The notes beneath the pieces are model-generated. The model was not told where the DNA came from, did no database searches, and worked only from the letters and a program-made list of their open reading frames with translations. A stretch of 410 nucleotides of DNA, from the NCBI RefSeq assembly GCF_003334305.1, contig NZ_QOWS01000078.1. One strand, 5' to 3'. Shown here in pieces: positions 1 through 410 of this stretch. Each line of letters opens with the position of its first letter. Position 1 is the stretch's first letter. The stretch is from Escherichia coli (lineage in GTDB: Bacteria; Pseudomonadota; Gammaproteobacteria; Enterobacterales; Enterobacteriaceae). Made by a program: the position numbers and the translations under genes.

Positions 1-410
1 CTGGATATCGATATCCCGTATGCGACGGACCCGGCAGGAAACCGGCTGCCGGACCCGGAACTGCACCCGGACAGCACGCTCACGGCGTGGCCGGATAACC
101 GCATCGCGGAAGATGCGCACTATGTCTACCGCCACGATGAATACGGCAGGCTGGCGGAGAAGACGGACCTCATCCCGGAAGGGGTTATCCGGATGCACGA
201 CGAGCGGACCCACCACTACCATTACGACAGCCAGCACCGTCTGGTGTTCTACACGCGGATACAGCACGGCGAACCACAGGTGGAGAGCCGGTACCTCTAT
301 GACCCGCTGGGCCGCCGGACGGGAAAACGGGTATGGCGGCGGGAGCGTGACCTGACGGGGTGGATGTCGCTGTCGCGTAAACCGGAGGAGACCTGGTACG
401 GGTGGGACGG
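1..410 (+). CDS. Rhs-family / YD-repeat protein, conserved core region (internal fragment, partial at both 5' and 3' ends; frame 1, codon 1 = nt 1-3)
   Basis: Seen in sequence: frame +1 is open for all 136 complete codons with no stop. Codon usage is typical of a real enterobacterial-type gene (ctg, ccg, gcg, acg, cgg preferred). The translation contains three canonical YD-repeat motifs and the stretch [38 protein letters not shown], which I recognise from memory as the late core of E. coli Rhs proteins (RhsA/B/C-type). High GC (about 64%) fits Rhs cores. The paralog cannot be assigned from 410 bp, so no gene symbol is given. Confidence 0.93.
121..153 (+). other. YD-repeat motif (protein-level) [11 protein letters not shown]
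   Basis: Frame +1 translation of nt 121-153 gives [11 protein letters not shown], a variant of the Rhs/YD repeat consensus (Y.YD..GRL). Confidence 0.75.
217..243 (+). other. YD-repeat motif (protein-level) YHYDSQHRL
   Basis: Frame +1 translation of nt 217-243 gives Y-H-Y-D-S-Q-H-R-L, matching the Y.YD...RL repeat pattern. Confidence 0.75.
292..318 (+). other. YD-repeat motif (protein-level) YLYDPLGRR
   Basis: Frame +1 translation of nt 292-318 gives Y-L-Y-D-P-L-G-R-R, a near-consensus YD repeat (Y.YD..GR.). Confidence 0.8.

Follow-up and report, generated by a model that had tools for sequence, protein, structure and literature searches.

The window analyzed here, a stretch of 410 nucleotides of Escherichia coli DNA, is securely assigned as internal coding sequence of an Rhs core, read in frame +1. 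This frame is open across all 136 codons of the window, and we placed the in-frame fragment of the Rhs core protein at positions 1 to 408 of the plus strand on the basis of the open frame, the match to the family model, the identity with annotated genes, and the distribution of variation over codon positions. The translated peptide matches the NCBIfam model NF041261 (RHS_core) with an E value of 1e-92 and 311.8 bits, covering 136 positions (909 to 1044) of the 1,261-position profile, and the nucleotide sequence is 100% identical to E. coli coding sequences annotated as “RHS element core protein.” A previous sequence-only reading had taken the window for part of an Rhs core, and these two results bear this out. 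On the 1,411-amino-acid exemplar protein WP_149032354.1, the window corresponds to residues 911 to 1046, which are part of the YD-repeat shell. Among 13 alleles, the 70 variable sites within the window fall on codon positions 1, 2, and 3 of frame +1 in the proportion 9/10/51.

Sequences of this kind are common in the species. A megablast search over 5,426 complete E. coli genomes matched the window in 3,720, at a median of 3 places in each; among the matching records, 175 have an identity of at least 99%, and for many it is 100%. In K-12-derived strains, the best matches, rhsD and an rhsE-like copy, were only ∼90 to 91.5% identical, and the window is thus not one of the K-12 Rhs copies. A word-indexed protein search with the window returned almost exclusively short E. 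coli fragments, several of them frameshifted, and the alignment resulting from it was discarded.

Three YD repeat motifs can be read from the translation, all on the plus strand, at positions 118 to 162, 211 to 252, and 286 to 327. Pfam reported three RHS_repeat matches on the window, all weak, which cover amino acids 42 to 56 (E value of about 4), 72 to 82, and 96 to 108 and accompany the three motifs in this order. In an alignment of 12 relatives, residues Y43, D46, and G49 are invariant in the first motif, D76, R80, L81, and Y84 in the second, and Y98, Y100, D101, G104, R105, and R106 in the third. This alignment reached down to 34% identity and was too diverse to be used for a search for related loci.

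The complete open reading frame (ORF) that holds an identical copy of the window scores 2,618.9 bits against NF041261, for which the curated cutoff is 2,000, and covers the full profile from position 1 to 1261. The encoded protein contains a DUF6531 domain at amino acids 47 to 123, nine Pfam RHS_repeat matches with E values of <0.001 within amino acids 1 to 700, a match to TIGR01643 (E value of 2.6e-46), and a match to TIGR03696 (RHS core end) at amino acids 1181 to 1258. It also aligns to solved Rhs cocoon structures, including Tse5 (8cp6; E value of 2e-122) and RhsA (7q97; E value of 1e-90), and the region of the window falls inside the stretch of the protein that aligns to 7q97, 8qja, and 8uy4. 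The sequence PIRYTDPLGL, an instance of the motif PxxxxDPxGL, occupies amino acids 1249 to 1258 of the exemplar; its last base lies 634 nt 3′ of the window end, outside the window. In the 13-allele alignment, all sequences diverge directly after this motif.

The gene order tssB-hcp-vgrG-Rhs (1,411 amino acids)-130-amino-acid ORF-ISAs1-yafV was found in both 100%-identity records with an intact context (strains GE3 and STN0717-20). Adjacency to vgrG, hcp, and tssB, together with the DUF6531 domain, marks the gene as a type VI secretion system (T6SS)-linked Rhs, whose product is predicted to be secreted. The upstream T6SS genes (positions 590 to 17195 of the exemplar locus, L001) are mildly GC enriched relative to the 50.4% of the genome sample, with values from 0.51 to 0.63 (vasI, 0.63; tssH, 0.59; vgrG, 0.56). 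The DNA around the Rhs core is thus not average but forms a moderately atypical island, in which no neighboring T6SS gene equals the GC content of the core. The tip of the exemplar (L001 21045 to 21506) shows a weak Pfam match to YkuD, the l,d-transpeptidase catalytic domain (E value of 3.4e-4; amino acids 1292 to 1392), which suggests a putative cell-wall-targeting toxin. The downstream 130-amino-acid ORF (L001 21484 to 21876) overlaps the Rhs stop codon by 23 nt and has 32.6% GC; it is a candidate immunity gene and matched no NCBIfam family. In E. coli SCU-106 (L045; NZ_CP053234.1, 6787 to 24410), the T6SS-linked Rhs is interrupted by IS30 and IS3 fragments, and a second Rhs core farther downstream is joined to pptA-yddH-nhoA-narI, which form the flanks of a different Rhs locus in three other records (L008, L033, and L039). 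This arrangement suggests a rearrangement of the chromosome that involved two Rhs loci.

By direct base count, the window contains 141 G, 122 C, 91 A, and 56 T, i.e., 263 G+C out of 410 nt (64.15%), the same figure as that counted by hand in the sequence-only reading. Sliding windows of 100 nt span 0.60 to 0.69 GC, showing that the richness is even along the whole window, and the values by codon position in frame +1 are 0.68 (GC1), 0.43 (GC2), and 0.81 (GC3). Since the whole Rhs core has 63.5% GC, with 200-nt windows ranging from 0.56 to 0.70, the window is ordinary for its core; it is not anomalous inside it, and the high GC content is a property of the core as a whole. Accordingly, all of positions 1 to 410 were delimited, without assignment to a strand, as a segment of a GC-rich compositional domain, given its GC (64.1%), its GC3 (0.81), the change-point fit, and the finding that no sampled host window is this rich. 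Sequence inspection and a self-hit on the opposite strand revealed one further element, a perfect 14-nt palindrome, GGATATCGATATCC, at positions 3 to 16 (no strand assigned). It is the product of codons for Asp-Ile-Asp-Ile and includes two EcoRV sites and a ClaI site, and it is not conserved: paralogues have LDIRIP at this place. An Rfam scan of the window returned nothing at an E value of ≤1, and a repeat search of it returned only short imperfect matches without evident meaning.

Two further reading frames are open over much or all of the window, and neither should be annotated as a gene. In frame +2, a 111-codon ORF runs from position 20 to 355 on the plus strand. It was regarded in the sequence-only reading as spurious and as a consequence of the GC bias; the first part of this claim holds, while the second does not. 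Eleven of the 13 E. coli/Escherichia albertii alleles, of similar and mostly higher GC content (63.5 to 65.7%), carry 2 to 4 stops in frame +2. When synonymous codons were drawn anew for an unchanged peptide, ∼5 stops were expected in this frame under either E. coli usage (mean GC, 54%) or core usage (62%), against the one observed in the window (P of about 0.006 to 0.008). Over the whole core, frame +2 contains 50 stops, and its longest open run, of 126 codons, is nothing unusual (P = 0.12). Because this frame is more open in the window than resampling predicts (P of about 0.007), we considered frame +2 as a real overlapping gene and rejected it: the ORF is unconserved in close alleles, 51 of the 70 variable sites in the 13 alleles hit its second codon position, and the run does not stand out at gene scale. 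Its length is an allele-specific accident. Some of the database proteins that match the window are frameshifted translations (P0117 and P0058 in our set), and part of P0117 reads frame +2; by way of such broken gene calls, the spurious frame has already found its way into protein databases. On the minus strand, the codon-aligned antisense frame (1 to 408) has no stop, because the window lacks the sense codons TTA, CTA, and TCA. With core codon usage, a fully open antisense frame is expected 34% of the time, and it was open in 15 of the 16 homologous segments examined; here, the GC bias plausibly is the explanation. The heuristic that GC bias explains alternative ORFs is thus valid for particular frames only.

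To place the window in its compositional context, we located maximum-likelihood change points along the exemplar locus, where it occupies L001 20001 to 20410. These fall at L001 17282 and 20986, so that the GC-rich domain extends from ∼2,719 nt upstream of the window start to ∼576 nt past the window end. The first lies 11 nt after the Rhs ATG and the second 29 nt before PIRYTDPLGL. Along the exemplar, GC runs from 0.47 to 0.53 at the end of vgrG to 0.56 to 0.70 in the core, 0.40 to 0.44 in the tip, and 0.27 to 0.37 in the downstream ORF and spacer. The core (amino acids 1 to 1258) has 63.5% GC and a GC3 of 0.758, and the tip (amino acids 1259 to 1411) has 44.0% GC and a GC3 of 0.222. A drop in GC at the core/tip junction, proposed as a check in the sequence-only reading, is therefore present and sharp, with GC3 falling from 0.76 to 0.22. 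Ten further alleles have cores of 0.60 to 0.64 GC and tips of 0.36 to 0.49 GC, with tip GC3 values of 0.18 to 0.38.

As the host background, we sampled four 50-kb pieces (200 kb) of E. coli GE3, which carries a 100% identical copy of the window. This sample has 50.4% GC, and its 19,840 windows of 410 nt have a mean of 0.504 with a standard deviation of 0.052 and a maximum of 0.617, with none at or above 0.6415; measured against 50.4%, the GC of the window gives a binomial z of 5.6. For GC by codon position, 114 long ORFs from the same sample served as gene proxies, with mean GC1, GC2, and GC3 values of 0.594, 0.402, and 0.545, respectively. The highest GC3 among 3,482 in-frame host windows of 136 codons was 0.75, compared with 0.81 in the window. 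In both GC and GC3, the window thus lies beyond all host windows sampled, in agreement with the earlier claim that the core is markedly richer in GC than a chromosome of about 50%.

We then compared the direction of synonymous substitutions in the core with that in its flanking genes. Among the 13 E. coli/E. albertii alleles, synonymous singletons include 103 GC-to-AT and 18 AT-to-GC changes. In the five strains with the T6SS-linked locus, the core shows a ratio of 111:51 (P = 3e-6 versus 1:1), in contrast to 73:81 in the ten flanking genes common to the same strains (Fisher P = 1.6e-4, core versus flanks). Gene conversion from paralogues affects the singleton counts of the core and makes the rates imprecise; as conversion from equally GC-rich paralogues should push the ratio toward 1:1, the test is a conservative one, albeit on a small sample of strains. 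After correction for base content, core and flanks have similar per-site rate ratios (0.69 and 0.59, respectively; P = 0.37), and the core is therefore under the same substitution regime as its neighbors. The implied equilibrium GC3 of the core is ∼0.59 versus the actual 0.76. The core is thus out of compositional equilibrium and decaying toward the composition of the host, as a foreign origin predicts. An attempt to polarize “fixed” differences between two E. coli core subfamilies with three outgroup genera left only 5 usable 4-fold sites, owing to mosaicism and saturation.

Relatives of the core outside E. coli were sought in one genome per species across 100,044 species, starting from a 5-sequence alignment and using two short peptide patterns only, which makes for an insensitive scan. 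It returned 20 loci, with genuine relatives in Enterobacteriaceae only, and no GC-rich donor lineage was found with these two patterns. In the loci of the relatives, the flanks have 45 to 62% GC. The cores of Citrobacter, Yokenella, Superficieibacter, Atlantibacter, Pseudocitrobacter, and an Enterobacter metagenome-assembled genome have 0.58 to 0.64 GC and GC3 values of 0.63 to 0.78; the segments matching the window in E. albertii and these six other genera have 0.57 to 0.645 GC and GC3 values of 0.62 to 0.84, and the tips have 0.34 to 0.46 GC. At 4-fold sites, the distance from the E. coli core is 0.5 to 0.56 for the RhsD-type subfamily and 0.7 to 1.0 for the other genera. A rough decay calculation, assuming vertical divergence in hosts of ∼50 to 55% GC, requires a starting GC3 of ∼0.86 for the RhsD-type subfamily and of ∼0.95 for the other genera, the latter an extreme value. 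Three possibilities for the persistence of high GC3 are divergence before acquisition, recurrent import, or a GC-favoring force. For the first of these, Wang, Zhao, and Hill reportedly concluded in 1998, going by the title of their paper, that the subfamilies diverged before they were acquired by E. coli. Jackson et al. (2009, PMC2935791) have also argued for an ancient presence of rhs in Enterobacteriaceae, which is hard to square with a simple reading as a recent import.

At 4-fold sites, the E. coli/E. albertii cores (the exemplar and 12 alleles) favor G (0.53 to 0.60) over C (0.21 to 0.26), while the Citrobacter youngae core uses both about equally (G, 0.44; C, 0.43) at a GC content that is higher still (0.86). 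The synonymous preference for G or C has thus changed between lineages while the GC richness stayed. The E. coli alleles themselves are mosaic: compared with L001, allele L007 is 98.0% identical in the window and 91.2% over the whole core, and allele L039 is 94.6% identical in the window and 80.2% over the whole core. Together with L033, these alleles point to recombination between core subfamilies. Rhs fragments with 88 to 100% amino acid identity were also present on short contigs (L013, L020, and L025 to L029) labeled Collinsella, Akkermansia muciniphila, Bacillota, Oscillospiraceae, Lentisphaerae, Frankia tisae, and Jeotgalibacillus; coverage was 0.80 for the Frankia tisae fragment and 0.77 for the Jeotgalibacillus fragment. 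These fragments on contigs labeled as other phyla almost certainly stem from contamination with E. coli or from misbinning and not from transfer. One of them, L013, has the same core/tip GC pattern as the E. coli exemplar.

How did the core come by its composition? The sequence-only reading allowed for a source genome with itself about 64% GC, in which case there would be no anomaly; we see practically no chance of this, as the window is 100% identical over its 410 nt to many E. coli chromosomes, 200 kb of one of which has the 50.4% GC given above, while the genuine relatives are confined to Enterobacteriaceae and the matches labeled as other phyla look like contamination. A cause in the protein itself, namely, that the excess follows from the amino acid composition of YD repeats (Gly, Arg, Pro, Asp, and Thr), accounts for part of the signal. 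Relative to the E. coli background, the core is enriched in Gly (9.9% versus 7.3%), Arg (9.1% versus 6.1%), and Pro (6.0% versus 4.2%) and poor in Lys, Phe, and Ile; GC1 in the window is 0.68 versus 0.59 in host genes; and the window peptide recoded with average E. coli codon usage already has 54.1% GC. However, the recoded sequence has a GC3 of only 0.53, against the actual 0.81 at 64.0% GC, and GC2 (0.43) is near that of the host (0.40). Of the 13.7 excess GC points, ∼3.7 come from amino acid content and ∼10 are synonymous. Codon resampling thus refutes amino acid composition as the sole cause, and we regard this explanation as very improbable. The synonymous part could in turn reflect translational selection for high expression in E. 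coli, and the codons CTG, CCG, and GCG, which are preferred in the core, are indeed also common in E. coli. Yet the core overuses codons that are rare in this host: CGG makes up 44% of its Arg codons (9% in the background), AGG 11% (1%), GGG 37% of the Gly codons (13%), ATA 28% of the Ile codons (7%), and GAG 70% of the Glu codons (29%), whereas CGT and GGT are underused. Because this usage is so unlike that of E. coli, translational selection is not the cause of the bias, and it is scarcely credible as an explanation.

A more substantial alternative is that the high GC content is kept in place, for example by GC-biased gene conversion among core copies or by selection that acts on the core at the DNA or RNA level. 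High GC3 in at least seven other enterobacterial genera despite nearly saturated synonymous divergence is what one would expect from such a force, and the GC-rich domain almost exactly matches the segment between the ATG and the DPxGL motif, in which paralogues are homologous and can therefore recombine. The mosaic alleles (such as L007, with 98% identity in the window and 91% over the core), the median of 3 copies per genome, the differing 4-fold preferences of E. coli (G, 0.59; C, 0.21) and C. youngae (0.44 and 0.43) at shared GC richness, and the lack of a donor in the two-pattern scan are on the same side. Against it, the per-site ratio does not differ significantly between the core (0.69) and the flanks (0.59; P = 0.37), the equilibrium GC3 of ∼0.59 is well under the actual 0.76, and the net flux is from GC to AT (111:51 and 103:18); moreover, the tips, far below the host in GC (GC3 of about 0.2), are left unexplained. 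We therefore consider maintenance in place unlikely, and the broader proposition that the GC content of the Rhs core is a state maintained above that of the host in many genera, by biased gene conversion or another force that the tips escape, to be rather unlikely as well. The reading that we judge probable is that the window is an internal piece of an Rhs core whose GC richness was inherited from a GC-richer gene pool and is now being lost. The interpretation of the composition as foreign, put forward in the sequence-only reading, gains support from the non-E. coli codon usage and from the net GC-to-AT flux in the core that is absent from its flanks; as the two short peptide patterns of our scan found no donor, we infer this origin from composition and substitution patterns.

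According to this reading of an inherited and decaying GC richness, the encoded protein would be a polymorphic toxin delivered by the T6SS, with the YD-repeat core folding as a cocoon round a variable C-terminal toxin tip that would be cleaved off at PxxxxDPxGL. The high GC content resides mostly in synonymous sites, where codons ending in G or C are preferred, among them CGG, GGG, and AGG, which are rare in E. coli. The core was most likely shaped in, or drawn from, a gene pool richer in GC than the present host, and it would be slowly losing GC under the substitution regime of this host, while the tips and putative immunity genes may be AT-rich cassettes acquired separately.

The exemplar resembles known systems in several respects. 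Like the E. coli Rhs elements (RhsA to RhsH, studied by Hill and coworkers; NF041261), it combines a GC-rich core of ∼1,250 amino acids with an AT-rich core extension, which in these elements has 143 to 245 amino acids, and it is followed by a small ORF and an ISAs1 (H-rpt) element. Unlike the K-12 copies, the 100% identical copies examined are T6SS-linked Rhs genes next to vgrG at the yafV locus. The exemplar shares homology over the shell and the core end with solved T6SS Rhs effectors, i.e., Pseudomonas aeruginosa Tse5 (8cp6), Pseudomonas protegens RhsA (7q97), Acinetobacter baumannii Tse15 (8uy4), and Salmonella bongori Rhs (8qjd), at E values from 2e-122 to 1e-55. In such effectors a cocoon has been described that encloses the C-terminal toxin (PMC11461821, PMC8765631), and by sequence comparison alone a cocoon of this kind may be expected for the exemplar; the abstracts of these two papers do not address base composition. 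A G+C-rich core and an A+T-rich core extension have been noted for E. coli Rhs, and for Rhs of Serratia marcescens the core has 67.7% GC versus 46.4% in the tip (Jackson et al. 2009, PMC2935791). In the clade II rhs of S. marcescens Db11 (SMA1610; PMC2935791), this step is followed by a low-GC trough downstream, much as the exemplar goes from 63.5% to 44.0% and then to 27 to 37%, although SMA1610 belongs to another Rhs clade and to a host of different GC content.

That Rhs genes join a GC-rich core to an AT-rich tip is already known biology. Descriptions of this structure date back to the 1990s, and rhs genes are picked up by generic screens for composition. In the concept of Lawrence and Ochman, acquired DNA of atypical composition undergoes amelioration, and the core resembles such ameliorating DNA in its deviant GC3 and codon usage, its sharp boundaries, and its net flux toward the composition of the host. 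It differs from a plain recent acquisition in that Rhs is an old and widely distributed family within Enterobacteriaceae (PMC2935791), so that its acquisition is not demonstrably recent, and the two-pattern scan found no donor. That high GC3 persists across genera while the E. coli copies are losing GC bears directly on the choice between repeated import and maintenance in place; if the GC content were indeed maintained, the Rhs genes would lend themselves to testing for biased gene conversion in bacteria.
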